Positions 9,081 through 30,837 of a stretch of 37,010 bases of DNA are shown here, in pieces (the stretch's first letter is position 1; each line of letters starts with the position of its first letter). Both the position numbers and the translations under genes were made by a program. The notes under the pieces are model-generated. The model was not told the origin of the DNA, ran no database searches, and saw only the letters and a program-made list of their open reading frames with translations. Origin of the DNA: a virus (lineage: Duplodnaviria > Heunggongvirae > Uroviricota > Caudoviricetes); IMG/VR virus record IMGVR_UViG_2778261177_000006; one strand, written 5' to 3'.

Positions 9081-9118
9081 AAAAACCGCTAATGTTCAGA
9101 TTAGCGGTTTTCTTTTTC
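9081..9118. terminator. Bidirectional rho-independent terminator between convergent U and G
   Basis: Stem aaccgctaa/ttagcggtt flanked by an A run and a T run; lies between the ends of two convergent genes. Confidence 0.65.
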
Positions 9119-9853: not shown

Positions 9854-9856
9854 AAA

Positions 9857-12592: not shown

Positions 12593-12602
12593 TGTTTCTC
12601 AC

Positions 12603-13130
12603 TTATCCGGGATAAACAGTAATAACATCACCATCACAGACCACACCGCCTGTATACAGATAGCCGGGAATGTCCTGGATAATGTTCAGGCCGATAAGGT
12701 GGCGACTTGCGGGTTTGGCATCGGCAATCAGCCGTTCCATTTCCAGATACATTTCCTCGGTCACACCACTGTCCAGCGTGCCAACATCAACCTTGAATGT
12801 TCCGGGTTCGCCGTCGAACTCCCACCACTCAGACACACGAATGAGATATCCCAGCGGCTCAATGGCCCGGCGCAGTGCGCTGATGGTTCCCTTGTGTCGG
12901 TGTATCAGCCATGCATCACGAATCACCTGTCGCTTTGTCTCTTCCGGCCAGTTGCGATCCCAGCGGTCAACGGAAAATGCCCAGGCGAGATAAGGCAGCA
13001 GATGCACCGGGCAGGTGTCCGGCGACCACAGCGTGTTGAGGTCTACCGGAATGTCTGTAATGCGCGCTCCGACAGCTTCGGCGCAACGCATGAAATTGCT
13101 GGCTGATGGCGGTAACAGTGAATTACTCAT
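12603..13130 (-). CDS. I: Baseplate protein I (start taken at MSNSLLPP)
   Basis: Position between J and H; about 175 aa from the chosen start, matching P2 gpI length. Confidence 0.8.
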   Translation of the reverse strand: MSNSLLPPSASNFMRCAEAVGARITDIPVDLNTLWSPDTCPVHLLPYLAWAFSVDRWDRNWPEETKRQVIRDAWLIHRHKGTISALRRAIEPLGYLIRVSEWWEFDGEPGTFKVDVGTLDSGVTEEMYLEMERLIADAKPASRHLIGLNIIQDIPGYLYTGGVVCDGDVITVYPG

Positions 13131-14019
13131 TACGCCCACCTTCGCTGATGGTGAATGACTCACAGCGCGCCGCCTGTATGTTGCTGATGGCCATATTCTG
13201 TGTGGGTTCGATTATCTCCACGCGTTGAACACCGTGCACATGCAATGCGGCAGCAATGGCGGACAACGCCACGTCCTGACCGATAAGCCCCTGCTCAGCC
13301 AGCCACTTCCTGAACGACGATTCAGCCGCAGCCAGAATAGGTTCGGATTCCGGGCCGGGATAAAAGTACAGTTTTGCATTCAGCCGCCATGTCACGATTC
13401 TGGCACTCTGTACGGTCAGGCGGTCGGCCACCGGGCGGGTATCCTCTGCATTCAGAACGGCACGAACGGTATTAAGCAACGCCTCCGTTGCTGTGCCGTC
13501 GCCTTCAGTGGACAGGATGGAAACCGTCACGTTGGCCGGAGACGGACTGATAGCCCGCGCATCACGCACCAGACCGCTGGCGCTGCGGGCAAAATACTCG
13601 TATGCACCTGACGGGCCAGCAACACTCAGGCCGTCGTACGCCCGCTGCGCCCGCAGTCTCAGCGAGGTGTCACTCTCCATCACCGCGTCGGTGGTATCCG
13701 TTGCCGGAGTGATGGTCAGGCGCTTTGTGTTCATATTGCCCGCGAGGTTGTCCAGGTCTGTCCCGGCGCTGTGGCTTAACATGCAGGCGCGTGCCCCCTC
13801 ATTGACCCGCTGGCGTAACAGCATTTCACGAAACGCTGTTGTCTGGGCGATAACGTTCAGGGGTTCCGATTCCAGCTCCAGCGCGGCGGAGACGGCTTCA
13901 CGCTGTTCGGCGGGATAAGCCGCAATCATCATGGCCTTTGTGTCAGCCAGAATTGCCTCAAAGTCAGGTTCCGCGATGATGGCGGGGTCCGGTAACTGTG
14001 AAAGGTCAACGGCGGGCAT
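13123..14019 (-). CDS. J: Baseplate protein J (298 aa)
   Basis: Size and position within the conserved V-W-J-I-H-G order. Confidence 0.85.
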   Translation of the reverse strand: MPAVDLSQLPDPAIIAEPDFEAILADTKAMMIAAYPAEQREAVSAALELESEPLNVIAQTTAFREMLLRQRVNEGARACMLSHSAGTDLDNLAGNMNTKRLTITPATDTTDAVMESDTSLRLRAQRAYDGLSVAGPSGAYEYFARSASGLVRDARAISPSPANVTVSILSTEGDGTATEALLNTVRAVLNAEDTRPVADRLTVQSARIVTWRLNAKLYFYPGPESEPILAAAESSFRKWLAEQGLIGQDVALSAIAAALHVHGVQRVEIIEPTQNMAISNIQAARCESFTISEGGRNE

Positions 14020-14022
14020 GAT

Positions 14023-14373
14023 TTACTCCCTCAGCGTGATGGTTAATTCAACATTCTGCATGGTCTGCATGACAGTGCCCGACAGCGTCACCCCGGCGCG
14101 GCCTCCCGCTTTCCAGACAACGTCGATGGCATCCAGGGCAATGCGGGGTTCCCATCGTGTCAGCGCAATCACGGCAGCACTCATGCATTGCAGACGCGTG
14201 GTGTTATTCATGGGTTCGTCAATCAAATCAGGCACAAGGCTGCCATATTCCCGTCGCATAACCCGGCTTGCCAGCGGGGTGGTCAGGATGTCCCTGACTG
14301 ACTGTTTCAGGTGCTCCATATCGTTCAGGTTTCCCGTTCCGTCCGGGTTCATTCCTGTGTAGCGGGTTGTCAC
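14023..14373 (-). CDS. W: Baseplate protein W (gp25-like, 116 aa)
   Basis: About 115 aa between V and J; start overlaps the V stop. Confidence 0.85.
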   Translation of the reverse strand: MTTRYTGMNPDGTGNLNDMEHLKQSVRDILTTPLASRVMRREYGSLVPDLIDEPMNNTTRLQCMSAAVIALTRWEPRIALDAIDVVWKAGGRAGVTLSGTVMQTMQNVELTITLRE

Positions 14374-14951
14374 TGCGGGCCTCCTGTCGAATCGCTGCCG
14401 CCTTTCACGCCACCGTGTTTATGCGTATGCACGGTAATGCCGTTTGAGGTGAAGTTGCCGCCGCTGTGCGTGATATGGCCGCTCATCTTTCCTCCTTTTG
14501 TGACGTCAAGCGTCGCCGTTCTCAGAAGGTTTGTGCATTCCACGACGGGCGTATCCAGTGTCACGCTGACGGATGCCTGCAGGGTGGCTGTTTTCATGCC
14601 GCTGGCGCTCAGTGCGCCTGCGTCCGCGTCGTAGCGGAACACCGCGCCATCCGGCGCGCTGACCACGATTTCTTTCAGGCTTTTGCCGGGGGCCGGACTG
14701 GCATCACTCCACAGGCTGCCAATTATCATGGCGGTTTCCGGGTTGCCGCCAATGCAGGCAATTACCACCTGTTCGCCTGGTGATGGCGGCAGCCACACAT
14801 TGAAGGCTCCCGCGCGCGTGGTGTTCCAGCGCAGCCAGCCTGTTTCCAGTTCGCCGCTGCGAACGCGCACGCGCCAGGACTTCTCATCAACTTCAGAGAT
14901 GATCCCGGTGCGGATGATATTGCTCAGCAGTCGCATGAGTTCTGCGCTCAC
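14370..14951 (-). CDS. V: Baseplate spike/assembly protein V (193 aa)
   Basis: Position and size; Gly/His-rich C-terminal tail typical of spike proteins. Confidence 0.85.
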   Translation of the reverse strand: MSAELMRLLSNIIRTGIISEVDEKSWRVRVRSGELETGWLRWNTTRAGAFNVWLPPSPGEQVVIACIGGNPETAMIIGSLWSDASPAPGKSLKEIVVSAPDGAVFRYDADAGALSASGMKTATLQASVSVTLDTPVVECTNLLRTATLDVTKGGKMSGHITHSGGNFTSNGITVHTHKHGGVKGGSDSTGGPQ

Positions 14952-15592
14952 CGTACAGCCTCCGCAATCCGGCCCAGCACCGTGTTATAAATCAGGCGTT
15001 CATCTGCCTGACTGATGCCCAACAGCTCACGTACCGGGTAATCGGTGAAAATGCCCGGCGCAACCTGATCGCGCTCACCGAACTGATGAACGCGTGCAAT
15101 ACGTGCGGCCACGCCGCTGTAACCCACCGTCACACCGGAAGCATCCGCACGGGCTTTCAGGTAGCGGGCGGTGCGCAGTTTTACGAACATGGGGACGCGC
15201 TTTGTGCTGTCCTGGTTGATGCGCCGGGTGCGTATTTCCAGAAAACGGTCGATGTCATCCCGGTAAAACGTGCGGATATTGTTTTTATCCTCATCCCACC
15301 CGGTAATGGTTCGCCCGTATTTCCCCGTGTCGTGATGCCAGTTTTTCAGCGTGCGTGCTTCGTTATTCCAGATAAAGCGAATGCACTCCTGTATCCGGGT
15401 TACGCGGCGTCTGCGAGGTGTCCACGCGGTCCCGTCCGGCGCTTTCTGTGACCGGATACGTGCCTGCTGGGCGCGGCGTAAATCCTGTGCCAGCTTTCTG
15501 GCGATGTTATTGATGGCCTGCTGATTCAGGCTGTCGCGGATGGCCTCAAAGGTTTCATCCACGCGGGTGAATGCCTTATCCATCGCTTTCAC
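14948..15592 (-). CDS. S: Tail completion / virion morphogenesis protein S-like (214 aa, non-ATG start in track; internal ATG at MDKAF possible)
   Basis: Position after R in the P2 order; longer than P2 gpS, so the call is by synteny. Confidence 0.65.
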   Translation of the reverse strand: MKAMDKAFTRVDETFEAIRDSLNQQAINNIARKLAQDLRRAQQARIRSQKAPDGTAWTPRRRRVTRIQECIRFIWNNEARTLKNWHHDTGKYGRTITGWDEDKNNIRTFYRDDIDRFLEIRTRRINQDSTKRVPMFVKLRTARYLKARADASGVTVGYSGVAARIARVHQFGERDQVAPGIFTDYPVRELLGISQADERLIYNTVLGRIAEAVR

Positions 15593-16043
15593 CCCACGTC
15601 ACATCCTGGAATACATGCGACCAGTCGCCTTCGGAAGAGGGCAGACGGGGTTTTGGCTCCGGCAGGTGTTCTGCCTGCGGTGTGCCCTGACTGTTGCGCG
15701 TAATGCGAACGCGTTCCCGCAGGGGGAGCGTAAACAGGAGATCGGCGCTATCATCGTCATTGATAACGGCGGAAAATTTGATGTCCTGATTACGCTCCGG
15801 ATTGAGCAACAACTGTGGCTGATTTTCGGATAACCACGCCAGTAGCGGCAGCGTGAGGTCGTCCAGCTCCCCGGCGTAATCCATGACAAACATCACCATC
15901 TGATAGCGGTAAACAAACGAGGGAGTTTCTCCGGTCGTTTCAATGTTGCCGCTCTCCACGAAAATGGTGAATTTTTCCGGGTTAGCCTGACACCATCGGC
16001 ATGAACGGGTCATGGCTTCACGCAGGGAATCAGTTTTCAGCAT
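15576..16043 (-). CDS. R: Tail completion protein R (155 aa)
   Basis: 155 aa, equal to P2 gpR, directly after the lysis genes. Confidence 0.75.
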   Translation of the reverse strand: MLKTDSLREAMTRSCRWCQANPEKFTIFVESGNIETTGETPSFVYRYQMVMFVMDYAGELDDLTLPLLAWLSENQPQLLLNPERNQDIKFSAVINDDDSADLLFTLPLRERVRITRNSQGTPQAEHLPEPKPRLPSSEGDWSHVFQDVTWGESDG

Positions 16044-16320
16044 GGTTGTTATCCTCGTTGTTCAGTCGTTGCAGCCTGCGCTGTTCCAGTAATTCAATGG
16101 CCTGTTTATCCGCGTTACAGGTTTCCAGTGCATCCAGAAGGCGGTCGCCCCATATACCGAGATTTCCCCATGTGGGAGTGTCAGGGAAGGGGGGAGGCGT
16201 TACCGGTATGGTCAGCGTCTGCGGTATAAGCCGGACTGACGGCGCTGGCCGTGGCGCGTTCTGCGTGCCTGCGCAGCCTGTCAGTAAAACGAGCGTCAGG
16301 CAAAGCGTGGGCGCATTCAT
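16030..16320 (-). CDS. Outer-membrane spanin (LysC/Rz1-like lipoprotein), partly embedded in the i-spanin gene
   Basis: Signal peptide with lipobox (LTLVLLTGC) followed by a proline-rich segment; starts inside the i-spanin ORF in another frame and extends past its end. Confidence 0.6.
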   Translation of the reverse strand: MNAPTLCLTLVLLTGCAGTQNAPRPAPSVRLIPQTLTIPVTPPPFPDTPTWGNLGIWGDRLLDALETCNADKQAIELLEQRRLQRLNNEDNNHAEN

Positions 16321-16588
16321 CTTTTGCAATATCGTTGCGTAGCTGTTCACGTCTTACCTCTCCGTCCTGATTGCGTTGCTGATTTTCCACGCGGAGTTGC
16401 GCCAGCACCTGCTGCATATCCTGTACCCCGGCGCTGATGATATTCAGGGTGTCGGCGGTACTTTTCAGGGTGCTGGCCTGCGCTTCGTTTCTGGCGTTCT
16501 CCCGGCCCAGCGACCACGACAGACGCATGGATGTTCCCCATCCGGCAATCAGAAGGAAAGCGACGCCAAGCGTGGGCCAGAGCTTCAT
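16181..16588 (-). CDS. Inner-membrane spanin (LysB/Rz-like), start at MKLWPTLGVAFLL
   Basis: N-terminal transmembrane helix then a charged coiled-coil region; ATG overlaps the endolysin stop. Confidence 0.6.
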   Translation of the reverse strand: MKLWPTLGVAFLLIAGWGTSMRLSWSLGRENARNEAQASTLKSTADTLNIISAGVQDMQQVLAQLRVENQQRNQDGEVRREQLRNDIAKDECAHALPDARFTDRLRRHAERATASAVSPAYTADADHTGNASPLP

Positions 16589-16977
16589 GCCGGATAGGCT
16601 CCGTGTGGTAACTGAAAATGCGGTCCGTCTTTCAGGGTCTTCCAGTCGCCGCCCCATTCCACCGGAATATTCAGCTCCCGGCTGGCCTGTCTGAATGCTG
16701 CTGCGATTTTTTCGTACAGCGGCCATTCCCATGACACCTGGCTGCCGATATAAGCCACAACATCCACGGCATGTCCCGTAAGGTGGCGGCTGTTCATGGT
16801 CTGGCTCTTACCCGTGGCCACCAGTTGCTTCTGGCGGTAACGGCTGCGCAACCCTTCGGTGATACCAAAATCCACTTCCGAGATTTCCAGTGCCCGTCGG
16901 GTCACTTTCACCAGATCAGGATTTACGTCCTGCAAATTCTTTTCGCTCCGGCTGCTGAATTTAAATGTGTTGCTCAT
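16585..16977 (-). CDS. Endolysin, peptidase M15 (L-alanyl-D-glutamate peptidase type), 130 aa
   Basis: SRHLTGHAVDV-type metal-binding motif and size typical of small M15 phage endolysins; AGGAGAAGG RBS; located between holin and spanins. Confidence 0.75.
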   Translation of the reverse strand: MSNTFKFSSRSEKNLQDVNPDLVKVTRRALEISEVDFGITEGLRSRYRQKQLVATGKSQTMNSRHLTGHAVDVVAYIGSQVSWEWPLYEKIAAAFRQASRELNIPVEWGGDWKTLKDGPHFQLPHGAYPA

Positions 16978-17297
16978 TCGTCCTTCTCCTTCACCCTGCG
17001 ATTAAAGGCCGCAATAACCTTGTCGCGTGCTTTCTCTGCCCCCATAAAACCGATTGATGCGCCGATAAACGTCACGGCATCTTCAGGAAACCCGAAGAAG
17101 CGCAACGACCCGGCCACGGCCATGGCAAGAACGCCGCACGCCAGCGATCCCGTTACGGTCTGAACCAGTGTTCGTCCGTCATAAAGACTCATCAGCGCGG
17201 AAATGCTGACCGCCGCGCCTACTGCATACACCGTTGGCAGGTGGTCAAAGAGCCACGCAATAACCTGCTCTGTGATCCCTGTTTGAATGGTGCTCAC
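16974..17297 (-). CDS. Holin (about 107 aa, probable GTG start just after the gpX stop)
   Basis: Three hydrophobic segments with a charged C-terminus (RRVKEKDE); sits directly upstream of the endolysin; GGGGGGAG precedes the GTG. Confidence 0.55.
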   Translation of the reverse strand: MSTIQTGITEQVIAWLFDHLPTVYAVGAAVSISALMSLYDGRTLVQTVTGSLACGVLAMAVAGSLRFFGFPEDAVTFIGASIGFMGAEKARDKVIAAFNRRVKEKDE

Positions 17298-17299
17298 TG

Positions 17300-17500
17300 C
17301 TACTCCCCCCACAACTGAATCATTTCTCGTTTCTTCTTCTCCGGCTCCGGCATCTCCACTTCCTGCCCGGCGTCCAGAAATACCTGCTGACAGAGTCCGG
17401 GGTTGGCATCCAGCACCTTTTCGGTGACGCCCTGCGTCGTGCCGTAGTACCGGAAACAGAGCGAATCCACGGTGTCGCCTTCCAGTGCCTTCACTTTCAT
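17300..17500 (-). CDS. X: Tail protein X (LysM-like, about 66 aa)
   Basis: MKVKALEGDTVDSLCFRYYG...VLDANPGL matches the P2 gpX pattern (QGDTLDAICVRYYG...VLAANPGL); start overlaps the gpL stop. Confidence 0.7.
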   Translation of the reverse strand: MKVKALEGDTVDSLCFRYYGTTQGVTEKVLDANPGLCQQVFLDAGQEVEMPEPEKKKREMIQLWGE

Positions 17501-18003
17501 CAGCACAATTCCGCAAAGATTCGCGGGCGGCACAGAATGTCAGAGATGGCCCAGCTCACATCGCGCCACAAATCCGATGTCTGTATATCCAGTGCGTCCG
17601 CCCGGCGGTCGCCCTTGTCCGTTGTGTCCGCATCGCGGTAACGCTCCAGAATCAGGGCGCGCGTGGCGGTATAAACAGCATTGCGCCAGTGCCAGAGATT
17701 GACGCTTTCTCCGTTAATTACGGGGGCCGGAACATCGGCCAGCGTCTGATGGCCAGCCGCCTGCTGTTCCTGCTGCCATGCTTCCAGCTCGCGGGTAACG
17801 TGTGCCACAGCCCCGGTGGCAGTATGCAGCAGGCGGGAGGTGGTCACGCGGCCCGGCAGTCGTACCGCCAGACGCAGCTCGCGCAGCACAATATCCGGCC
17901 AGAATGCACCCGCTGAAATGCGGGTATCGCCATCATCGGTATCGGTGATGTCGTCCTCTGCGGGTCTGGGTTCAGTTCTGGCAACCATACTCATGGGGTT
18001 CAC
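17500..18003 (-). CDS. L: Head completion/stabilisation protein L (167 aa)
   Basis: Size and position between small terminase and X. Confidence 0.8.
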   Translation of the reverse strand: MNPMSMVARTEPRPAEDDITDTDDGDTRISAGAFWPDIVLRELRLAVRLPGRVTTSRLLHTATGAVAHVTRELEAWQQEQQAAGHQTLADVPAPVINGESVNLWHWRNAVYTATRALILERYRDADTTDKGDRRADALDIQTSDLWRDVSWAISDILCRPRIFAELC

Positions 18004-18096
18004 TCCTGAAAAAAATCGGGCGGTGGGTGCGCGGTGTAAACGGTCACGGAGTCAAACCGGAACACCGCGCACGCCGCCCGCTGACGGGGTCAGTCG

Positions 18097-18897
18097 TTAA
18101 CCGCGCTTCGCCTTCTGCGTCGCGGTGGTTTTTCGTGTTGCAGGCTTCCGCGTTGTCTTTTTACTTTTACTGCTTTCGTCCTGCGTCTGCTGTGCGCTGG
18201 CGTCTTCTGGTGCGACTGCGGAATCGGCTTTTTTCAGGGCGCGGGAAAGGGTTGCAATCTCGCGTTTCACACCTGCGTTCGGGTTCAGGTGCATTGCTTC
18301 GCGCAGCAGCTTCAGTGATAAGGCCATGTTGTCTGCATCGCTCAGACCACGACGGGCAAAGGCGCATGCCTTGCATAATTTGGCGCGTACTTCGTCCGGC
18401 ATGTCCTGGTCGGTGACAATCTCCCGGAGGGTGTCCAGTGGTTCGATAAAGGCGGACAAATCCGCGTCGGCATCCGTCCCGGCCTGCGTCAGCACTGGAT
18501 TGCAGATTTCTTCGGTCAGCACTGTGGCAGCAGTACGGCCAAAGTTATCCGGCATGATGAGGTTGTGACGGACCACATACGCGCCGATACGCAGCGCAAG
18601 CGGAAGATCGCCGCAGTCAATCGCCCACACCATCAGCGTGGCAATCACTTCATCCTGCTGCCCGCCGTCAGCCTCCAGTGTTCCCTCAATCCAGCCGGAA
18701 AAGTCCGGCAACAACTCTTTTTTGATGGCGGCTTTCGCGCTTCTGGCCTGTACGCCCTTAAGCCGGGCCTGTGCCAGACGCAGACGATACAGCACCTCTT
18801 CATGCGCGGTACGCGCGGCGTGGTCCACGCCTTCATTTGCCCGGCCTGCGCGCTGTGCCATCACGTTCTGCCAGTGTTGCTGTGCAGGAGTAATCAT
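18097..18897 (-). CDS. M: Terminase small (endonuclease) subunit M-like (266 aa)
   Basis: Position after the major capsid gene; basic Lys/Thr/Arg-rich C-terminal tail; GGAGAG RBS. Confidence 0.8.
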   Translation of the reverse strand: MITPAQQHWQNVMAQRAGRANEGVDHAARTAHEEVLYRLRLAQARLKGVQARSAKAAIKKELLPDFSGWIEGTLEADGGQQDEVIATLMVWAIDCGDLPLALRIGAYVVRHNLIMPDNFGRTAATVLTEEICNPVLTQAGTDADADLSAFIEPLDTLREIVTDQDMPDEVRAKLCKACAFARRGLSDADNMALSLKLLREAMHLNPNAGVKREIATLSRALKKADSAVAPEDASAQQTQDESSKSKKTTRKPATRKTTATQKAKRG

Positions 18898-18942
18898 TTT
18901 TTCTCTCCGTTACAGGCGGGCATGATGCCCGCCGTGAGTTGA

Positions 18943-19995
18943 TTAGCTGTCGGCGAACTTCAGGCCAGTGACCATCGCGCACTTGCCATAGTCTTCAACG
19001 ACATAAGCGTCATTGATGGACTGGTAGGTGGCGATGCGGTTGTATTCCGGTTCGTCTTTCATCAGACGACGCATTGAACCTTTCTGCCAGTAAATCGACA
19101 GGTTGTTGAACGAGGTGATCAGCATCGTTGAATCCGGGAAGAACGGCGCAAGGAACACGCCCAGCCCGCCAATGGTGCGCGATGACAGAATGAGCTGCCC
19201 GGCGAGTAATTCCGCATTGGGATTCTGGCCGCTGATGCTGTTCAGCACGGGCAGACGCAGCGAGTTAAACAGGTTGCGCCCCATAATCACCACGAGGTCG
19301 TCAGCTTCCTTGTGCCATTCATCCAGCAGGGATGAGCGCGCGTCCTGTACCAGTGCATCAGCGTTCGCATACTTACCCGCGTGCGCCACGGTGTTGTCCA
19401 TGTTACGGGAGGTCAGCGTCACGTCATTCATAACGCGTTCGCTGGCGTCGGTTCTGATGTGCTCCAGCCAGCCCACGTTAACGTCCTGAAGCAGCTTGTT
19501 GGTGCTGAAGTTAGACTCATCCGCGTGAGACGTGCCGTTGAAACCGATCATGATGCGGTCAAGTGCCACCTGTCGGGCAATCTGTGCGCTGATGCGGGAC
19601 TGAAAATCAGGGTGTGCCGCCCAGGCATCAAGCTGCGGATATGAAATAAACGTGTCGTAGTTCACCTGTTCGCACTGGTATTTGCGGTTTTTCAGATCAA
19701 CCACGTTATTCGGGTTACGGCGTTTTGTGCCGTCATAACTGGTATTCGTGCGCGCAATCGGCCCGGTGGTATCCAGGAGGATTTTTTCGCCTTTCTGGTC
19801 GGTCACGCCGATCACGTTAATTCTTTTTGTAAATTCGGTGCTTTCCTTTGAGGCGTTTTCAAAACGCTGCTGTACCGAGGGTTCCACGGTAAATCGCGAT
19901 ACCAGTGCGGAAACCGGGATATTGTTAAGCGACGCCTGCTGCGCCATATAACAACCCAGCTTGTTGCGGGTAATATCTGACATCACCAGATTCAT
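18943..19995 (-). CDS. N: Major capsid protein N (350 aa)
   Basis: Size, AAGGAG RBS, and position between scaffold O and small terminase M. Confidence 0.9.
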   Translation of the reverse strand: MNLVMSDITRNKLGCYMAQQASLNNIPVSALVSRFTVEPSVQQRFENASKESTEFTKRINVIGVTDQKGEKILLDTTGPIARTNTSYDGTKRRNPNNVVDLKNRKYQCEQVNYDTFISYPQLDAWAAHPDFQSRISAQIARQVALDRIMIGFNGTSHADESNFSTNKLLQDVNVGWLEHIRTDASERVMNDVTLTSRNMDNTVAHAGKYANADALVQDARSSLLDEWHKEADDLVVIMGRNLFNSLRLPVLNSISGQNPNAELLAGQLILSSRTIGGLGVFLAPFFPDSTMLITSFNNLSIYWQKGSMRRLMKDEPEYNRIATYQSINDAYVVEDYGKCAMVTGLKFADS

Positions 19996-21009: not shown

Positions 21010-22761
21010 ATGATTCAGGACGCTTTTGTGCGCCAGCGTGCGCGGCAACTTTACTGGCAGGGTTATCCGCCCGCAGAAATATCACGTCTGATGGGAATAA
21101 ACCCGAACACGATTTATGCGTGGAAAAAACGCGACCAGTGGGATGAAACGCCACCCGTGCAGCGTGTCACGCAGTCCATTGATGCGCGCCTCATCCAGCT
21201 TACTGAAAAACAGAATAAAACAGGCGGTGACTTTAAGGAAATAGACCTGCTGACCCGGCAGCTTAAAAAGCTGCATGATGGCCAGCCGGATGTGATGGCC
21301 GCAGGAAAGAAAGGCCGGGCGAAAAAACTCAAAAATCATTTCACGCCGGAACAGATTGCCGCACTGCGGGAAAAAATCATCAGCAGGCTGGAGTGGCATC
21401 AGCGGGGCTGGTTTGACTCCCTGACCCTTTGCAGGGAAGCCGGGATACGTAACAGGATGATCCTGAAATCCCGACAGATTGGGGCGACCTGGTATTTTGC
21501 ACAGGAAGCACTGCTGATGGCGCTGCGTGACGATGTGGCGCAACCTTACCAGCGTAACCAGATTTTTTTGTCTGCGTCGCGTCGTCAGGCGTTCCAGTTT
21601 AAAAGCATTATTCAGAAGGCCGCGGCTGAAGTTGATGTGGAGCTGAAAGGGGGTGATAAAATCATCCTCTCCAACGGCGCAGAGCTGCATTTTCTCGGCA
21701 CTTCTGCTGCGTCGGCACAGTCCTATACGGGCAATTTTTATTTTGATGAATTTTTCTGGGTCAGTCGCTTTGCTGAACTGCGCAAGGTGGCTGGCGCTAT
21801 GGCAACCCTCAGCGGACTGCGGCGCACCTACTTCTCCACGCCATCCACCGAAACGCACGAGGCATACGCCTACTGGAACGGCGACCGCTGGAACGAGAAA
21901 AAGGCCTCGCATAAACGCCAGCGTTTTTCTGTGGACTGGAAAACGCTGCATAACGGACTTATCTGCCCTGACCGGACATGGCGGCAGATTGTCACGCTGG
22001 AAGATGTGGTTAATCACGGCTGGAAACACACCGATATTGACGAAATCCGTGATGAAAACACCGAAGACGAGTTCCTCAATCTCTACATGTGTGAGTTTGT
22101 CCGCGAAGGGGAATCGGCATTTAACCTGAATATCCTGATTGGCTGCGGCGTTGACGGATACGACGACTGGAAAGACTGGAAACCTTTTGCTCCCCGCCCG
22201 ATGGGAAATCGTCCGGTATGGATTGGGTATGACGCAAACGGCAGCAGTGGCAACGGCGACAGCGGCGCTGTGTCCGTGGTGGTTCCTCCGGCTGTTCCTG
22301 GTGGCCGTTTTCGAACGGTGGAGACGCGACGCGTTCAGGGGCTGGAGTTTGAAGAACAGGCCAGAGTCATTGAAGAGTTCACGTGTCGCTACAACGTGGA
22401 ACACATCGGTATTGATGTGACGGGCGGGAACGGGGAGGCTGTTTATCAGATAGTGAAACGGTTTTTCCCTGCTGCTATTCCGTACACCTTCACGCTGTCA
22501 TCAAAACGGTCGCTGGTACTGAAAATGCTGCAAATAATGCGTGCCGGGCGGTGGGAATACGATCGCGCCGAACGCGAGCTGGTCGCGGCCTTTAACGCCG
22601 TGCGTAAGGTGAAAACACCGGGCGGCTTTATCACTTACGAAACGGACCGCGCGAGGGGGATCAGCCACGGCGACCTTGCGTGGGCAACCATGCTTGCTGT
22701 CATTAACGAACCGATTGGCGGCGAAGGAGAAAACGAGCGTTTCACGGTTATGGAGTTCTGA
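21010..22761 (+). CDS. P: Terminase large (ATPase) subunit P (583 aa)
   Basis: About 580 aa with ATPase-like N-terminal half and acidic nuclease-like C-terminal half; divergent from O as in P2. Confidence 0.9.
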   Translation: MIQDAFVRQRARQLYWQGYPPAEISRLMGINPNTIYAWKKRDQWDETPPVQRVTQSIDARLIQLTEKQNKTGGDFKEIDLLTRQLKKLHDGQPDVMAAGKKGRAKKLKNHFTPEQIAALREKIISRLEWHQRGWFDSLTLCREAGIRNRMILKSRQIGATWYFAQEALLMALRDDVAQPYQRNQIFLSASRRQAFQFKSIIQKAAAEVDVELKGGDKIILSNGAELHFLGTSAASAQSYTGNFYFDEFFWVSRFAELRKVAGAMATLSGLRRTYFSTPSTETHEAYAYWNGDRWNEKKASHKRQRFSVDWKTLHNGLICPDRTWRQIVTLEDVVNHGWKHTDIDEIRDENTEDEFLNLYMCEFVREGESAFNLNILIGCGVDGYDDWKDWKPFAPRPMGNRPVWIGYDANGSSGNGDSGAVSVVVPPAVPGGRFRTVETRRVQGLEFEEQARVIEEFTCRYNVEHIGIDVTGGNGEAVYQIVKRFFPAAIPYTFTLSSKRSLVLKMLQIMRAGRWEYDRAERELVAAFNAVRKVKTPGGFITYETDRARGISHGDLAWATMLAVINEPIGGEGENERFTVMEF

Positions 22762-23807
22762 TGAGCAGAAAAAATAAAAAAGTGCGCATGAGTTCACGCA
22801 TTGATCTCGCTGATGCGCTCAGGAAAGAATCATCGCTCAGTGCATTCACATTTGATGGTCCTTATCGCCTGACCGGGCATGACCTGCTGGACAATATGTA
22901 CTGTGCTGATAACGGGCGGTGGTATGAAACCCCGGTGGACTGGTACGGTCTGGCAAGAGCTGCCCGGCAAACGTCCTGGCATCAGTCTGCGCTTTACTTT
23001 AAGCGTAATGTATTGCTCGGCTGCTATATTCCGCATCCGCTGCTTTCCCGGCAGGATTTCTCGGCGCTGGCGCTGGACTGGTTTGTGTTCGGTAACGCAT
23101 TCCTTGAGCTTCGGAGCAATATGCTCGGCGAACCGCTTAAATTACGGCACGCCCTGGCGAAATACATGCGACGCGGAAGCGATCTTGAATCATGGTGGTA
23201 TGTGCAGGATGGCAAGGACGCGTTTCAGTTTCGCCCTGGCAAAGTGTGCCACCTGATGAATCCTGACATTAACCAGGAAATCTACGGCATGCCGGAATAT
23301 CTCGGCGCATTACTCTCGGCCAGCCTGTCTCATTCGGCGGACATGTTCAGAAAACTGTATTACGACAACGGATCCCACGCCGGGTGTATCATCTACATCG
23401 GTGCAGCGCAGGTAAACCGCGAAAGCATGGACTCCCTGAAAGAAACGCTACAGGGTGCACGTGGTGGTGGTGCGTTTAAAAACGTGCTCATTCATGCGCC
23501 CAACGGGGGCAAAGAAGGTGTGCAAATTTTGCCGTTCCAGCAGATCACCGCAAAGGATGAGTTCATGAATGTTAAGGCGGCATCCCGTGATGATGTGCTG
23601 GCTGCGCACCGCGTTCCGCCGCAACTGATGGGGGCGATGCCGGGTGAAAAAAGTGCGTTTGGTGATGTGGAAAAGGCCGCGCGGGTTTACGCAATTAACG
23701 AGCTGATGCCCGTTATGGAGGCCATGAAGCACATCAATGACTGGCTTGGCGAAGAGGTGATCCGTTTTAATTCTTATGCTCTTCTTGATGAAAAAACAGC
23801 CCCGTGA
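22761..23807 (+). CDS. Q: Portal protein Q (348 aa)
   Basis: Start overlaps the terminase stop (TGATG); size matches P2 gpQ. Confidence 0.9.
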   Translation: MSRKNKKVRMSSRIDLADALRKESSLSAFTFDGPYRLTGHDLLDNMYCADNGRWYETPVDWYGLARAARQTSWHQSALYFKRNVLLGCYIPHPLLSRQDFSALALDWFVFGNAFLELRSNMLGEPLKLRHALAKYMRRGSDLESWWYVQDGKDAFQFRPGKVCHLMNPDINQEIYGMPEYLGALLSASLSHSADMFRKLYYDNGSHAGCIIYIGAAQVNRESMDSLKETLQGARGGGAFKNVLIHAPNGGKEGVQILPFQQITAKDEFMNVKAASRDDVLAAHRVPPQLMGAMPGEKSAFGDVEKAARVYAINELMPVMEAMKHINDWLGEEVIRFNSYALLDEKTAP

Positions 23808-23828
23808 TGGGGCTGTCCTTTTTACCAG
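23796..23828. terminator. Bidirectional terminator between convergent portal gene and orphan gene
   Basis: Stem cagcccc/ggggctg with an A run on one side and a T run on the other; contains the portal stop codon. Confidence 0.6.
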
Positions 23829-24346
23829 AGTTGAACCATTTTCTGGGTGCCGTCAGGCTTGAGATTATCAATTTCAGAGAGAACGTAATATTGAATGGCT
23901 TCACAAACGGTGGTGTATGGTGAATTACCTTCTTTAAGTGGCACGATATTATTATTAACGCGAACCTGTATTTCATCGTTATACATTGCGATCGAAAGAG
24001 GAGTATGCACGAAGGCGACTTCGCCAGGTGTGTCGTCAACCACTGTCTCAATGCTGAAAATCAGTTTTCGCTCATCATTGCCGCCCCTTGCTTTGGGGGT
24101 AGCGGCAGGAATCTGAGATAAAGGCATTCTGCGAAACCCTTCAGCCGTTTCCAGTCCGCATGAAACGTAATGCTGGCGATTACCGTCGCTATCCGTCCAT
24201 GTCTGTGATGGCAGCTCCAGAGAGATTTCATAAGCATCAACAATTCCCTGGGCAATGCGTACAAGCGGGGTCAGGTCTTCATTGCGGCGAAAACTCTCCT
24301 TTACCTGATCTCGTTTTTCTCGTAACTGCTTGTAATTAATGACCAT
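23822..24346 (-). CDS. Hypothetical protein, about 174 aa (start at MVINYKQL with GGAGG RBS); function unknown
   Basis: Clean ORF with strong RBS, own terminator, convergent with portal; no family recognised; GC visibly lower than the structural genes. Confidence 0.55.
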   Translation of the reverse strand: MVINYKQLREKRDQVKESFRRNEDLTPLVRIAQGIVDAYEISLELPSQTWTDSDGNRQHYVSCGLETAEGFRRMPLSQIPAATPKARGGNDERKLIFSIETVVDDTPGEVAFVHTPLSIAMYNDEIQVRVNNNIVPLKEGNSPYTTVCEAIQYYVLSEIDNLKPDGTQKMVQLW

Positions 24347-24448
24347 AGAACAGCCTCCATTGATTTCTTTGCTCGTATTTTGCACTTATGAAGTGTGGTC
24401 GGCAAGGTGCCGCATCACTGACGCGCTTCGCTTGTCTGCTGCTTCGCC

Positions 24449-24471
24449 GGGGCATAAAAAATTTATGCCCC
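24449..24471. promoter_or_regulatory. Perfect palindrome ggggcataaa-aaa-tttatgcccc upstream of the orphan gene
   Basis: 10-bp inverted repeat with 3-nt spacer read directly from the sequence, in the promoter-proximal region of the 23822-24346 gene. Confidence 0.4.
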
Positions 24472-24844
24472 GACTCTCCAGCTCCTGTATCAATCAGATA
24501 ATTTCGCGACGTCTTCCGACTTATCGCTATCATCGACGGCCAGACTCTTACACAATCCCGCCGCGCTGACTGCATGTTCTCGCCGCCTCAGTGCGATTTT
24601 GACGGCCTTACCTTTCATCCCATCAAATCAGAACACCTTACGTCTTTTTCACGCTCAGCGTGAGCGATACAGCCATTTTGTTGTGTCGCTGCGACATCGT
24701 TCAGGGAATGCTATTTACCCCCTGAAACGCGGGCTGTTCCCCCGTCACCTGCGCGCAGAAAAAGCGCGTTTTTTTGTGCACGCACGGATCCTTGACGGAT
24801 CCAGCCGCCATGCGGGCCGGAAGGGTAAAAAGTCGTTCAAAAAA

Positions 24845-24871
24845 ATTGTGCAAATTTGTGCACTTTTGTGC
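24845..24871. repeat. Three direct TTGTGCA repeats phased at 10 bp
   Basis: ttgtgcaaat / ttgtgcactt / ttgtgcaaac in tandem, one helical turn apart, next to the terminator hairpin. Confidence 0.6.
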
Positions 24872-24877
24872 AAACAA

Positions 24878-24900
24878 AAAGCGCCCCTGAGGCGCTTTAG
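24878..24900 (-). terminator. Rho-independent terminator of the parMR-containing operon (agcgcc-cctg-aggcgct)
   Basis: GC stem directly after the last minus-strand gene, followed on the minus strand by a T run. Confidence 0.6.
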
Positions 24901-24932
24901 TGTTTTATAGGTTGTGTATATTGGCTGGGTCC

Positions 24933-25196
24933 TTATCCTGCTGTGCTTTCAACTGATGAGGGGAACAAAATCTTTTCATCAAACCCTGCATTCATATCAT
25001 GGACAGCAACACACCAATCCATTGACGAACGATTATCAAGAGCCTCCATGATTTCATCCATGCGGCGTAGGTCATACAGGTAAATGCTTTTATCGCCAAT
25101 GGTGTAAAAACCAATTTTTTTCGGTGATGGACAGCGATCAAGAACGTCCTGTAATTCGCTCAACCATGCTTGTTCTTTTTTTGTCAAAGTTGCCAT
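24933..25196 (-). CDS. Hypothetical protein, about 87 aa (start at MATLTKKEQ)
   Basis: Last gene of the parM-parR operon; tightly packed with the upstream ORF; no family recognised. Confidence 0.45.
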   Translation of the reverse strand: MATLTKKEQAWLSELQDVLDRCPSPKKIGFYTIGDKSIYLYDLRRMDEIMEALDNRSSMDWCVAVHDMNAGFDEKILFPSSVESTAG

Positions 25197-25648: not shown

Positions 25649-25963
25649 TCACTCTGGGAAAAATGACTGAATGTTCTTTCTTATCTCGCTAGTGCTGTGA
25701 TTGCTTCCGGTGGCAGGTGCGCTGGCATATTTACTCTGAATATTATTCTTGGCTGGCGCAGCTCCTTCTTCCGGCCATTCGGCCAACCAATAGGCAAATG
25801 CAGGATCGCGTTTTATGAGTGCCAGCCCGGCCAGAAAGGCCGCGCGTTGCGCGCGGCTGCGTTCAGAGGCTGGCAGGCTGTCGAGGTAATTACACGCCTC
25901 CCGTTCACTATTGACGGCGACTGGCTTCAGATAGAAACTTATCCGTCTGGTTGGTGTCGTCAT
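25649..25963 (-). CDS. parR: ParR-like ribbon-helix-helix centromere-binding protein (about 104 aa, start at MTTPTRRISF)
   Basis: RISFYLKPVAVNSEREACNYLDSLPASERSRAQRAAFLAGLAL closely parallels plasmid R1 ParR (RTIAFKLNPDVNQTDKIVCDTLDSIPQGERSRLNRAALTAGLAL); AAGGAG RBS; immediately downstream of parM. Confidence 0.75.
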   Translation of the reverse strand: MTTPTRRISFYLKPVAVNSEREACNYLDSLPASERSRAQRAAFLAGLALIKRDPAFAYWLAEWPEEGAAPAKNNIQSKYASAPATGSNHSTSEIRKNIQSFFPE

Positions 25964-25967
25964 TGGT

Positions 25968-26927
25968 TTACTCCTTGTCCATTGCGTACAAACCATTGAC
26001 CAGAGCAAACTGTGGCACCCCGTCCGCGATGAAAGTCGCATTAACTCCGCAGGCTTCGCGGATAGCGGGTGCCACAATCTCCGCCCCGCCACCGACAACC
26101 ATCACCCGCCCGTAACCCGAAAAACCCGCCAGCGCGCGGATCACTCGTTGTTTCAGCGTTTCTTCCTTTTCACGAATAACCGCCATCAGGCTGTCGTAAT
26201 GCGCGTCATTGTGGATGTGCTGGCGCAGCCAGGCTTCATCGTGGCGATGTTCGATAATGGTATTGGCGATATGGTGACTGGTACGCATACCGTTAGTGGC
26301 CATCACCGACAGTACGGCATCGGCCATCAGGGAAACGCCTACGTGTGGATCGCAAAACACCTGGCTGATACCTGCCAGTTGTCCCTGGACCTTTGCCACA
26401 TCCAGCGTGGTTCCGCCTAAATCCACAATCAGCAGGGATTCAAACGGACTCATGTCAGCCAGTGCTTTAAAACCAGCCGGAATGGATTCAGGCATAACCC
26501 GTACGTTACGGATAGTGAATGCTTTTCCGTTCTGGTACGCCACCGGGCGCATGACGTTTGCTTTTTTGCGGTTGATGTTGGCCATGTCCGGCTGTGCGTT
26601 TGTGTCGAAATATTCGCTCAGTGGCAGGGTGACAACCACATCCACTTCCTGTGGTGTGATGCCTGATTTGACCAGCGCGTGATGAATGGCAATGACATTC
26701 ACATCGCTGTACTGGTATTGCGTGTCGGTCGTCTGGACAAAGCGATCGCTGACCGGATCAAAACCATAGCGCACGCCATCAAGCATGTAGTTTGCGGGCT
26801 GCGTGCCACCGAACGGCGCAGACCATTCCGACTTGAAGCTGTTCGGGCTGATGGCGTTGCGGCGTTCGCCGTTCTCAGTCCATGCCAGCTTGATGTTGGT
26901 GGAGCCGTCGTCGATACAAATTTTCAT
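25968..26927 (-). CDS. parM: ParM/StbA-family actin-like segregation ATPase (319 aa)
   Basis: Near-complete colinearity with R1 ParM landmarks: IDDGSTNIKL, SPNSFK, YSDVNV-A-HHAL, KKAN, VMPESIPAG, DLGGTTLD, GVSL, VMV-GGGAE, LVNGLY. Confidence 0.85.
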   Translation of the reverse strand: MKICIDDGSTNIKLAWTENGERRNAISPNSFKSEWSAPFGGTQPANYMLDGVRYGFDPVSDRFVQTTDTQYQYSDVNVIAIHHALVKSGITPQEVDVVVTLPLSEYFDTNAQPDMANINRKKANVMRPVAYQNGKAFTIRNVRVMPESIPAGFKALADMSPFESLLIVDLGGTTLDVAKVQGQLAGISQVFCDPHVGVSLMADAVLSVMATNGMRTSHHIANTIIEHRHDEAWLRQHIHNDAHYDSLMAVIREKEETLKQRVIRALAGFSGYGRVMVVGGGAEIVAPAIREACGVNATFIADGVPQFALVNGLYAMDKE

Positions 26928-27003: not shown

Positions 27004-29826
27004 TCATATATCGCGGCGCGTTTTTTGCTCATTTACGGGATTTGTGAATCCCGTTTCTGTCTGTTTTTTGTTTCCACTGGTCAGGCCACCCCGCAGCAGG
27101 TCTGCTTTGCGGCGGGCACGTTCAGTGGTTTCACTGATTCTCTGTGCGTGCTCTGCGTCGCGGATGGCGCGCAGCATGTCAGAAAGCACGGTAACGGGTG
27201 TTTTCATGGTGTTCTGGTCCTGCTGAAGTGTGGATGCCAGGCGTGTGGCGGCTTCAGGGTCTGATGCCCCCAGCTGTGCCAGATAGCTGGCGACCGGGTT
27301 ATGGCGGATCTCCGTGCTGCTTACACCGTGATTACGGCTCAGGCGCTGCCAGAGCTGCGTGATTCGGCTGTCCGGGCGGGTATCCGGTTTGCGTACAATT
27401 TCAAATCCCTGCGGTGCAATGATGCTGCCGTCAACGTACAGACTGCCGCCCCGTAACAGGTGCTGCATTTGTTGTTCACCGATATGCAGGCCGAGAGATT
27501 CAGCAGACTCCCGCCATTCTCTAGCGAGTAATTCGTGGTTATCAGGCAAAGGCCGCTGCTGTTTGCGGCTCTGTGTCCAGCTCTGCATTTCATCACTGCT
27601 GTTTTTTGCCTGTTTGTCACGAAGCGAACGCATCAGCGCCCGGCGTTCGTGCCGTTTCAGTGAGCGCATCCATTCGTTCACTTCAACGCCGTCAGGGAGC
27701 TGCGGCCACGGTGCTGGCCGTTCTTCCGGCTGTTCTGTCCCGTTGTTGTCCGTTTCCTGTACACGGGGACAGTTATTGCCACGAGTCCAAGGGGCGGCAG
27801 GGCCGCCCTGAAGGTCAAAACCATTTTCGCGGGCGCTGTCTTCCGCTTCCGGTTTGCGTCTTACCAGCTTCCAGTTATCCGGATGCGTGCACACACGGGA
27901 GGATTCCCCGATGAGTGGTGACCAGATCCCGTAAATCTGTACGCCCTGCTCGCCGTAATCGTTCAGCTCATCTGCGAGGTCGTAGGCGGTGCGAATCAGG
28001 TAGTCCTTGCGTGGAACAAGTACGCCACCCTGTTTTTCAATGTAGGAGGCAAAACACCCGGCATCAGCGGCAGCAAGAACCGCATCCATTGCGTCATCCT
28101 TCAGCCGTTGCGGGCCTTCCGGGTTGCGTGCCATCTGGCTGGCAAGGCGGCGGAGTTCACGCCACACCTGACGGGAGGGGATGCCAAAGAACTGGAACTG
28201 GCGGACCCGGTGAAGGCGCGCCCAGCCGATGGCGCGCTCCACGCTCTCGGCCATTGATTTACCTGTTTCGTGGTCAACGCGTGGCTTGCCCGTTTTCGGG
28301 TCGATGCCATCCACGGCGCGGCTGTCCAGGTTCTTTCCGATGTAGGTCGCGATATAGCTGGTTGGTGTGCCTTTTGAGCCGTCGACATACTCCACCTTAA
28401 AGCGCGGAGTAATATCATTGCCGAGCTCGTGGCGGTCTTCCTGAATGGCAATATCGCGGGTGATGGCCACGATGCTGTCGATTTCTTCCGGATGTGCAAA
28501 GACCATCATATGCCAGTGCACTGTGCCGTCATGGTGAGGCTCCACCGTGCGGATGCCATACCAGCGAAGACCGTCGCGGTTCAGTTTTTTGCGGACCGCT
28601 GCAAAAAACGTGTTAACCAGGTAATCGCTGGAGTCGCGCATGGTGGCCCCGTTCCATCTGGGATTCGGATGACCGTTCTCTGTTGTGGCGTGGTACTTCG
28701 AAGGGGTGGTGACAGTCAGAAACACCGCTCTGTCGCCACGGGCTTCGGCCAGAAGTTCCAGCCCCTTCATGGTGGCCATCATTTCTGCCTTACGGTGAAC
28801 CGGGTTACTTACTCCCGCGTAATACACTGTCTCGAGATCAATCGTGAACCCGTCTTCGTTTTCCAGCATGAAACTTTTCAGGAAGTCGCGTGTTTTCTCG
28901 CGCTGTGCGCGAAACTCGCTTAACGCGTCCTGGCTCAGATAGGGCGATGTTTTTCTGGAAACCAGACAGGCGGCACGGAGTTGTTCTTCCCGCCACTCGC
29001 AACGTAACAGCCACAGTTTGCGTTTCCACCATTCCGCACAGGTCAGACGAAGGATTGCGCCCGGCAGCAGCTCCGTGTCCGGTTCGTTCCTCCGGTCTTT
29101 GTCTGTTGTCAGTGCTTCGTAATGCGGCGGCACGGTGTGCAGGTGTAACGCCATGCGGGCCAGCATCTGATACGCCTTCAGTGCCACCTCCATGGTCAGC
29201 TCACCATCAGTCGCGCCAAAGCCATCGCAGAGTTTTTCGAAGGTGCTGCTGAACATCGCCGCCGTCATGGTGGCCAGCGTCTGTATCTGGTGTTTGTTGA
29301 GCTGCGGCAGGTAAAGCAAATCATCCAGGCGTTCACGTCCGGCGAGGGAGCGATAACCCGGTGTCAGCCAGCGACTGTCGGCACGGTTAATGCGATCGAA
29401 TATCTTGCGCAGGGTTCCGCGTGCATAGCGTTCTGCCTGCCAGCTCTTTTTGCCTTTCCGGCGATCGGCTTCCTGTTTTTTGCGCAGGAAGGAGAGGTGG
29501 CGAATAAGCGGATCGCGCAGATAAGACGGCAGCAGGCGCAGCGAGGCCATGGCTTCATCCACCGCGCCGCGTGCCTGTTTTCTGGCGTCTCCTGCCAGTG
29601 TGATGGTTTTGTCCTGTTTTTCCTGTGCGTCCAGGCTTTTATTAATCAGGTTGCCCAGCGGCGTGGCGGAGAACGCCGCATCAGCCATTTCCTGGCGGCG
29701 CTCGTTCTCTGCCCGGTAGGCATCCAGCCAGGAGGAAAGCGCGGATTCAGGAGCGGGGATCCCCGTTCCTTCACGCCCCACTGCGTGGCGCGGTTGTTGC
29801 CAGTCCCTGATGTACTCTGCCGTCAT
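27004..29826 (-). CDS. A: Replication initiation endonuclease A (rolling-circle initiator, P2 gpA family), 940 aa
   Basis: HUH-type motif (HWHMMVFAH) and tandem active-site tyrosine motif (YIATYIGKN) in the translation; largest early-region ORF. Confidence 0.9.
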   Translation of the reverse strand: MTAEYIRDWQQPRHAVGREGTGIPAPESALSSWLDAYRAENERRQEMADAAFSATPLGNLINKSLDAQEKQDKTITLAGDARKQARGAVDEAMASLRLLPSYLRDPLIRHLSFLRKKQEADRRKGKKSWQAERYARGTLRKIFDRINRADSRWLTPGYRSLAGRERLDDLLYLPQLNKHQIQTLATMTAAMFSSTFEKLCDGFGATDGELTMEVALKAYQMLARMALHLHTVPPHYEALTTDKDRRNEPDTELLPGAILRLTCAEWWKRKLWLLRCEWREEQLRAACLVSRKTSPYLSQDALSEFRAQREKTRDFLKSFMLENEDGFTIDLETVYYAGVSNPVHRKAEMMATMKGLELLAEARGDRAVFLTVTTPSKYHATTENGHPNPRWNGATMRDSSDYLVNTFFAAVRKKLNRDGLRWYGIRTVEPHHDGTVHWHMMVFAHPEEIDSIVAITRDIAIQEDRHELGNDITPRFKVEYVDGSKGTPTSYIATYIGKNLDSRAVDGIDPKTGKPRVDHETGKSMAESVERAIGWARLHRVRQFQFFGIPSRQVWRELRRLASQMARNPEGPQRLKDDAMDAVLAAADAGCFASYIEKQGGVLVPRKDYLIRTAYDLADELNDYGEQGVQIYGIWSPLIGESSRVCTHPDNWKLVRRKPEAEDSARENGFDLQGGPAAPWTRGNNCPRVQETDNNGTEQPEERPAPWPQLPDGVEVNEWMRSLKRHERRALMRSLRDKQAKNSSDEMQSWTQSRKQQRPLPDNHELLAREWRESAESLGLHIGEQQMQHLLRGGSLYVDGSIIAPQGFEIVRKPDTRPDSRITQLWQRLSRNHGVSSTEIRHNPVASYLAQLGASDPEAATRLASTLQQDQNTMKTPVTVLSDMLRAIRDAEHAQRISETTERARRKADLLRGGLTSGNKKQTETGFTNPVNEQKTRRDI
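27032..27070. repeat. 38-bp repeat unit 2 (tttacgggatttgtgaatcccgtttctgtctgttttttg) inside the 3' end of gene A
   Basis: Same architecture as unit 1; lies within the last ~20 codons of the A ORF. Confidence 0.6.
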
Positions 29827-30501: not shown

Positions 30502-30680
30502 GGTGTGGCCTCGTACGTAGTAAGTTTTAAAAACTCACCATCCAGAGGTGGAAAACTCGGGGTGGTGAGACGTACAGGGTTTCCACAACCGGCTACGCAC
30601 GAATCCGGCCCGACCGAAGTCGGCCCTGTACGCCCCACCATAATTCTGACGCGAAAAAGACGTGGCGATACGGTACGCAC

Positions 30681-30701
30681 AAAAAAACCGCTGGCGCGGT
30701 T
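30681..30701 (-). terminator. Minus-strand rho-independent terminator (aaccgc-tggc-gcggtt plus T7 on minus strand)
   Basis: 6-bp stem preceded on the plus strand by an A7 run, i.e. hairpin plus U tract when read on the minus strand. Confidence 0.55.
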
Positions 30702-30837
30702 GTGCGCGTGCATAGTCAGCGGGGTGGAAATCCCGGCACCCGTTTTATGAGGTGCAGCGGAAATGTAACCTGACTGATTGCGGCATGGCAAGCGGTTTTT
30801 TTGTGAGAACGGCATACTAAAAAATCCTGATACTGCT

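Follow-up and report, generated by a model that had tools for sequence, protein, structure and literature searches.

The locus considered here raises the question of what a prophage keeps in a tract of 540 bp (24390 to 24930) that has the look of non-coding DNA. The window, that is, the whole 37,010-nucleotide stretch analysed (IMG/VR record IMGVR_UViG_2778261177_000006), is identified by gene content and homology as a P88-like (Xuanwuvirus/Peduoviridae) prophage of the P2 family. No family-supported open reading frame was found within 24347-24932, where only short unsupported frames occur; one of these, a 42-residue frame at 24490-24618, is annotated in a single record, has a weak ribosome-binding site and lies inside a variable zone. 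The tract itself is widespread, with 90-95% identity to P88-like phages (Xuanwuvirus, Gemsvirus and others) and a match in ∼1140 of 5426 complete E. coli genomes. The genes that frame it are as follows:

18097 to 18897, minus strand: small terminase subunit gpM (Phage_term_smal)
21010 to 22761: gpP-type large terminase (Terminase_6N/6C and a gpP-type Terminase_5 domain)
22761 to 23807: portal protein Q (Phage_portal)
23822 to 24346, minus strand: 174-residue protein of unknown function (phrog_5091, no Pfam match)
27004 to 29826: replication protein gpA (Phage_GPA)

Genes for gpN, gpO, gpL, scaffold and capsid are likewise present, and the window's gpM and gpP are 36% and 44% identical, respectively, to the P2 proteins. 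The tract thus has the portal gene on one side and the replication-side cargo arm on the other, in a phage encoding both gpP and gpM; this is the usual place of cos in P2-family phages. An initial sequence-only reading of the DNA had pointed to this position, and the terminase, portal and gpA domains confirm it.

Both sides of the tract are known sites of gene turnover: the cos-to-Q interval of P2-like phages is an insertion hotspot (PMC5694545), and the cos-to-gpA interval is a hotspot for defence and cargo genes (PMC9122126). On the portal side, a cassette (23796-24418) has been inserted between portal and cos, bringing a new portal terminator (23796-23816) and the 174-residue gene; the same insert is found in ∼13 of 120 IMG/VR relatives. 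The portal stop falls at the window equivalent of ∼24420 in most relatives, and homology to phage P88_4B11 resumes at a TGA at ∼24417, the 30 nt ahead of it (24387-24416) resembling the portal 3' end in degenerate form. The distance from portal to cos is ∼920 bp in the window with its inserted gene, compared with ∼310 bp in P88-like phages and 168 bp in P2. On the replication side, the cos-to-gpA hotspot holds a type II partition-like cargo pair on the minus strand, ParM (StbA, 25968-26927) and a StbB/ParR-family gene (25649-26098), with only ∼76 bp between the parM start and the gpA stop. Many P88-like relatives have this pair; at least 11 others are without it.

Within the tract, one segment (24712-24873) is very probably the cos site, that is, the packaging recognition and cleavage signal, of this P88-like member of the P2 family. 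Its predicted parts are the following, with distances counted from the core:

24712 to 24873, minus strand: putative cos unit, delimited by comparison (left border, core, hairpin, R0, spacer, R1-R3)
24731 to 24751, minus strand: predicted cohesive-end core, reading (CA)GGTGACGGGGGAACAGC(CC), 100% conserved in close relatives
24751 to 24776: GC hairpin (GCGCG..CGCGC) and T/A run, abutting the core
24774 to 24780, minus strand: proximal repeat R0, TTGTGCA on the plus strand and TGCACAA in P2 orientation, at -31
24781 to 24845: spacer, with two ACGGATCC copies (24784-24802), a GC-rich inverted repeat containing GGAAGGGYA (24803-24827) and an A-run (24838-24845)
24846 to 24872, minus strand: distal triplet R1-R3, three copies of TTGTGCA at -103, -113 and -123, forming the outer cos border

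On the minus strand, in P2 map orientation, the unit would read as three TGCACAA repeats at 10-bp intervals, a spacer of ∼65 bp, a fourth TGCACAA, an A-run, the GC hairpin and the core. The proposal that the 540-bp tract is a cos region is borne out by the repeat ruler, the conservation, the sharing with a satellite and the gene context set out below. It holds for 24712-24873 and fails for the rest of the tract, which consists of portal 3' flank, filler and a cargo terminator.

The repeats provide the most informative part of this comparison. The TTGTGCA triplet reported from the sequence is confirmed at 24846, 24856 and 24866, exactly 10 nt apart, and a fourth copy, previously uncounted, lies at 24774. 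The heptamer is not enriched across the window as a whole (7 copies, 9.2 expected), and a phased triplet arose in none of 100 shuffles, even when 2 mismatches were allowed. TTGTGC of R0 is invariant in five divergent lineages, and homology among relatives stops exactly past R3. The positions of TGCAY were measured against the first cos base in phage and satellite records that have a terminus at the cohesive end, in P2 map orientation; for the window, the reverse complement was measured from the GC-rich block at 24731-24749:

P2: TGCAT, distal copies at -123, -111 and -101, proximal copy at -29
186: TGCAT, distal copies at -124, -111 and -101, proximal copy at -29
P4: TGCAT, distal copies at -124, -111 and -101, proximal copy at -29
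PSP3: TGCAT, distal copies at -120, -111 and -101, proximal copy at -29
Ralstonia RSA1: TGCAT, distal copies at -129, -110 and -100, proximal copy at -29
Window: TGCAC, distal copies at -123, -113 and -103, proximal copy at -31

Enterobacter phage phiT5282H and the satellite described below carry TGCAC at -31, -103, -113 and -123, exactly as in the window. The window therefore has the P2-family arrangement, in which the replication-side arm carries a distal TGCAY triplet at ∼100-125 nt from the core. As in P2, 186, PSP3 and P4, one TGCAY lies ∼29-31 nt from the core and a triplet at ∼101-124 nt, the two core-proximal distal copies being 10 nt apart. Unlike the P2 group, in which the repeat is TGCAT, the window uses TGCAC(AA), and all three of its distal repeats are exactly 10 nt apart. 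The sequence between the TGCAT copies is unrelated in P2 and P4, whose genomes are reported to have only the cos region in common (PMC9122126, PMC9594776). Such a pattern of short motifs one helical turn apart, at fixed distance from the core and with free spacers, argues for a protein-binding array. R1-R3 together with R0 are most likely the terminase recognition array, judging from positional homology with five phages and satellites of known ends, from conservation, and from a satellite that shares only the cos segment; a terminase-type binding array, one of the options raised at the outset, is thus the best reading of the phased repeats.

Two side observations concern the same layout elsewhere. 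A locus of another lineage (L114, ∼10480-10690) has the same TGCAC arrangement with a quite different GC-rich core, GCGCTCCCCACCCCCTCGCGAGC, and a P4-type integrase 1.7 kb away, and one further IMG/VR locus combines the TGCAC layout with the core CGCCCTTCCCTCGTCGCC; together they suggest that repeats and core are modules evolving separately. The second observation is from P2, where the distal TGCAT triplet (1425-1480 of the P2 record L003, equal to P2 33424-33479) lies 27-54 nt from the annotated old-tin transcript starts, around and just upstream of the -35 region of the leftward old-tin promoter, so that terminase binding and cargo-promoter activity could interfere at the triplet.

Conservation and element sharing set the limits of the unit. 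Among 68 unique close relatives, 24717-24872 is ∼100% conserved, and conservation falls to ∼35% directly past R3 (24872), where the variable cargo hotspot begins. Since the IMG/VR relatives were fetched with a pattern containing R1-R2, the conservation of these two repeats is partly a selection effect; no such selection acted on R0, R3 and the core. Independently of this, two otherwise unrelated elements (L128 and L111) have only ∼24712-24873 in common with the window. In E. coli this element is an island of ∼13 kb between hpt and gcd (L137, NZ_CP148349, ∼7400-19950; L128, ∼3900-4070), which carries the P88-type cos with TGCAC repeats and was found in 56 of 5426 complete E. coli genomes at ≥80% query coverage. 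The island encodes an integrase, an integrase-like protein, AlpA-like and Icd-like proteins, a toprim primase, an ogr/Delta-like zinc finger and a PemK toxin; a P2-family major capsid homologue is present, and portal and terminase are absent. Judged from this gene content, from which its satellite behaviour is inferred, it resembles a satellite of the P4 type that has a capsid gene of its own and is tuned to P88-like helpers. The cos has thus been borrowed by satellite-like elements, here the hpt-gcd island, L128 and L111. As in P2 and P4, a satellite shares the cos and cargo hotspots lie on both sides of it (PMC9122126, PMC5694545). Island sharing and conservation limits would together repeat the P2/P4 situation and point to a packaging signal of ∼160 bp.

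Locating the cohesive-end core within this unit required a different approach, because no site in the window matches the 19-nt P2 cohesive end within 3 mismatches; layout was therefore compared instead of sequence. On the minus strand, the window core GGTGACGGGGGAACAGCCC agrees with P2 GGCGAGGCGGGGAAAGCAC at 13 of 19 ungapped positions in the same orientation, which is chance level, as other window sites score 13-14 of 19. As this identity alone is not significant, the core assignment rests on position and on alignment via Klebsiella relatives. Klebsiella phage 3LV2017 and the Klebsiella plasmid-prophage CP052639 have the same repeat layout and, in the column of 24731-24749, a near-P2 core, GGCGAGGCGGGGGAGCAAG, which agrees with the P2 end over its first 12 bases. 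The Enterobacter phage phiT5282H has GGTGACGGGGGAACAGCCC in this column, as does the window. Unlike P2, with GGCGAGGCGGGGAAAGCAC, the window core GGTGACGGGGGAACAGC (the same 13 of 19 matches) is 2 nt shorter when aligned against the Klebsiella near-P2 core. The mapped phiRSA1 cos begins GGTGAGGCGGGG (PMC5694545). The first core base falls at 24751 by the repeat ruler and at 24749 by sequence alignment, so the core is given as 24731-24751 with an uncertainty of ∼2 nt. This segment is the putative cleavage core, and its nick positions and overhang length are predictions. The ends of the P2 group are known by mapping, whereas those of the window are predicted from sequence; the literature searched yielded no mapped physical ends for the P88/Xuanwuvirus lineage.

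The hairpin beside the core had been taken for a terminator. The hairpin GCGCGCAGAAAAAGCGCGT followed by TTTTTTT is indeed present at 24751-24776, but its fold energy is unexceptional (z -1.1), and it is therefore better read as a DNA element of cos. It corresponds to the cos-abutting hairpin of P2, 186 and P4, with no sign of a stand-alone terminator. In P2, the counterpart of hairpin plus A-run is TGCATTAAAA-CCGCCCCGTGAAGCGGGCGG, inside the 55-bp core shared by P2 and P4 (Ziermann & Calendar 1990, as cited in PMC5694545 and PMC9594776); the TGCAT found at the margin of this 55-bp core is the equivalent of the window's R0. The elements of this layout (TGCAY, A-run, hairpin, cohesive end, GCGCGC flank) recur in the window with order and distances within 2 nt of P2, 186 and P4, while the sequence has diverged; the window has its GCGCGC between hairpin and core, on the hairpin side, whereas that of P2, 186 and P4 comes after the core. 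The locus thus resembles the cos of P2, 186, PSP3 and P4 in adjoining the portal gene, in orientation, in its GC-rich core flanked by GCGCGC and in the hairpin and A-run at the core.

In the spacer between proximal and distal repeats, the duplicated ACGGATCC element noticed in the sequence is present (24784-24791 and 24795-24802). The Enterobacter and Klebsiella lineages and the satellite have different sequence at this place; the duplication is therefore lineage-specific and not essential. No IHF consensus site was found in 24700-24900. The GC-rich segment at 24803-24827, singled out by the sequence-only reading as a likeness of the P2/186 cohesive-end core, does exist; it resembles the P2 end no more closely than expected by chance, coding sites scoring 13-14 of 19 as well. 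The segment is spacer between the repeats, and the homologous core lies at 24731-24751, ∼75 nt to the left.

An improbable alternative would nevertheless put the cleavage site in this spacer segment (∼24803-24827, ...GCGGGCCGGAAGGGTA|AAAAG) and reduce the 24731-24751 block to an accessory role. It draws on the linear record LR595891 (P88_4B11), the one public record whose ends fall here: both correspond to 24827|24828 of the window, at a distance of 78 nt from the predicted core. Within the same series, three P2-like sister records begin precisely at P2 cos, one sister record keeps a Tn5 adapter near its terminus, and the spacer's GGGCYGGAWGGGYAAAAAG is fairly well conserved in the satellite. 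However, the spacers of P4 and 186 contain a similar GC-rich inverted repeat, although the known ends of these two lie elsewhere, ∼75 nt away. Close relatives vary at columns 24811, 24818 and 24826 but nowhere in 24727-24756; the Klebsiella relatives place a near-perfect P2 cohesive end in column 24731-24749; and the spacer's own resemblance to the P2 end is at chance level, as noted above. The ends of the P88_4B11 record abut with no gap and no 19-nt overlap, which better fits a circular assembly opened in a low-coverage zone near cos. Nothing usable on the origin of record LR595891 was found in the literature searched. In the sister record LR595869.1 (phage P2_2H4, L138), positions 1-30 are the Nextera adapter CGTGGGCTCGGAGATGTGTATAAGAGACAG, followed directly by base 10 of the P2 cohesive end; the start of this deposited genome is adapter contamination. 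An adapter joined to base 10 of cos indicates that the series consists of Tn5 virion assemblies with contig ends near the physical ends. The break of P88_4B11 inside the cos unit is accordingly taken as independent support for virion ends in this locus, with cleavage predicted in the 24731-24751 core.

The remainder of the tract can be divided into three further features:

24419 to 24500: conserved block, ∼100% in the 68 unique close relatives, containing a palindrome with arms at 24448-24458 (CGGGGCATAAA) and 24462-24472 (TTTATGCCCCG)
24501 to 24711: variable left flank, conservation 70-95% with many variable columns, no supported gene, not shared with satellite L128
24878 to 24898, minus strand: Rho-independent terminator of the cargo operon that runs leftward through ParM, the ParR-like gene and two small genes, AAAGCGCCTCAGGGGCGCTTT followed by TTGTTT

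The perfect palindrome with its 3-nt loop is confirmed, with arms of 11 nt rather than the 10 first reported. As RNA it folds very stably (-22 to -29 kcal/mol, z ∼-6 to -7). The block that contains it comes immediately after the portal stop codon in those P88-like relatives that do not have the cargo insert, and is probably the counterpart of the end-of-operon hairpins P2 tQ and 186 tW, although it has no U-tract. Being missing from the Enterobacter lineage and the satellite, the block does not belong to the core packaging signal. A candidate cos in the palindrome region (24461-24479, 13 of 19 to the Klebsiella near-P2 core) was rejected, the palindrome being missing from that same lineage and from the satellite. 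The cargo terminator (fold z -4.0) lies in a non-conserved zone, differs between relatives and is outside cos.

These hairpins bear on the suggestion that a small regulatory RNA is encoded here, or that the tract is simply a set of terminators between convergent operons, which we regard as very unlikely. Hairpins with T-runs do occur on both strands (24751-24776 and 24878-24898), and the prophage has small RNAs elsewhere (C4 and isrK, 30558-30755). Against this, a search of 24300-25000 with Rfam at gathering and permissive thresholds gave no match, the best hits reaching 12-20 bits against gathering scores of 39-100, and no sigma-70-like promoter was found inside 24390-24930. A known small-RNA family would be expected to combine a covariance match with a promoter and a terminator; the match and the promoter are missing, and the small-RNA suggestion of the sequence-only reading is left unsupported. 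The fold of 24745-24785 is unexceptional, and what is conserved, here and in phages of other orders, is a set of short motifs a constant distance apart with unconstrained sequence between them, which fits protein-binding DNA and not structured RNA. The C4 and isrK hits are of separate interest: C4 antisense RNA (77.5 bits, 30558-30645, minus strand) and isrK (62.2 bits, 30681-30755, minus strand) adjoin each other, both above the gathering score, and the pair represents an RNA-based immunity and antirepressor module of the P1/P7 or P4 type in a P2-family prophage.

It is extremely improbable that the TTGTGCA array is a parC-like centromere for the ParR-like protein of the adjacent ParM/ParR operon. 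ParM and the StbB/ParR-family gene do lie on the minus strand only ∼0.8-2 kb from the array, and phased repeats of 10-11 bp are what type II centromeres are built of. However, at least 11 close relatives with no ParM hit still have the repeats (among them L018, L024, L036, L041, L050, L063, L065, L105, L120 and L129), positionally equivalent repeats occur without ParMR in the Klebsiella and Enterobacter lineages, the satellite, P2, 186, P4, PSP3 and RSA1, the break in homology between R3 and the cargo indicates that the repeats travel with cos and not with parMR, and the array lies downstream of the operon terminator, whereas R1-type systems have parC upstream of parM. The repeats thus do not depend on the presence of parMR and do not sit at the parM promoter, and ParR binding to them, raised at the start as something to assay, is refuted by their persistence in relatives and in P2, 186 and P4 in which ParM is absent.

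Repeat arrays at a cos site have parallels inside and outside the P2 family. In phiCTX (NC_003278), a P2-family cos with a 21-nt cosR is flanked on the replication-side arm by annotated short repeats R3-R6, which shows that repeat arrays at P2-family cos sites had already been noticed. phiCTX uses GCAG-type repeats and annotated IHF sites, whereas the window has TGCAC repeats and no IHF consensus. In lambda cosB, repeats R1-R3 are bound by the small terminase subunit gpNu1, with an IHF site, I1. The window resembles cosB in combining a cleavage site with a one-sided array of short repeats that would recruit terminase, a functional analogy rather than family membership: there is no sequence or protein homology to lambda, and the cosB repeats are not all direct. 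Lambda also packages from concatemers, whereas P2 packages from monomeric circles.

A working model for the 24712-24873 cos site follows from the P2 precedent, in which terminase makes staggered nicks in the core to leave 19-nt 5' overhangs, and one cos on a monomeric circle is used for both cutting and packaging. The terminase here would comprise gpM and gpP, and the candidate readers of the repeats would be gpM and the N-terminal helix-turn-helix of gpP. The complex may bind the triplet, whose copies face the same side of the helix, together with the proximal repeat; such binding would loop or bend the ∼65-bp spacer and set the nuclease on the core. A single cos on a monomeric circle would then serve cutting and packaging, as in P2. 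The window's gpP has such a helix-turn-helix (Terminase_5/HTH_23, residues 6-63).

A broader and decidedly tentative extension, which we think possible but would not bet on, is that the TGCAY layout represents a universal terminase code throughout the P2 family, spanning the Ralstonia phages, the E. coli phages and the satellites of these, and that the P88-like, Enterobacter and Klebsiella lineages switched from TGCAT to TGCAC and changed their core, thereby forming a separate packaging-specificity group with dedicated satellites such as the hpt-gcd island. On this view the reader of the repeats might be the helix-turn-helix of gpP and not the small subunit gpM. No account of the TGCAT repeats, of gpM binding to them or of a TGCAY specificity switch was found in the literature searched.

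As a cos site, the segment is an ordinary and expected feature of such a phage, and no new kind of element. Its value lies first in giving a very common type of E. coli prophage an exactly annotated packaging signal, whose location would explain the turnover of cargo genes on both sides of the tract. A minimal fragment of ∼160 bp should suffice for cosmid or transduction vectors with P88-like helpers. The modest by-product is the TGCAY ruler that appears to span the P2 family and its satellites, with an apparent TGCAT-to-TGCAC switch in the P88-like group; as a fixed-distance repeat code common to model phages and satellites, it may be used to find cos sites, and pairs of helper and satellite, computationally.
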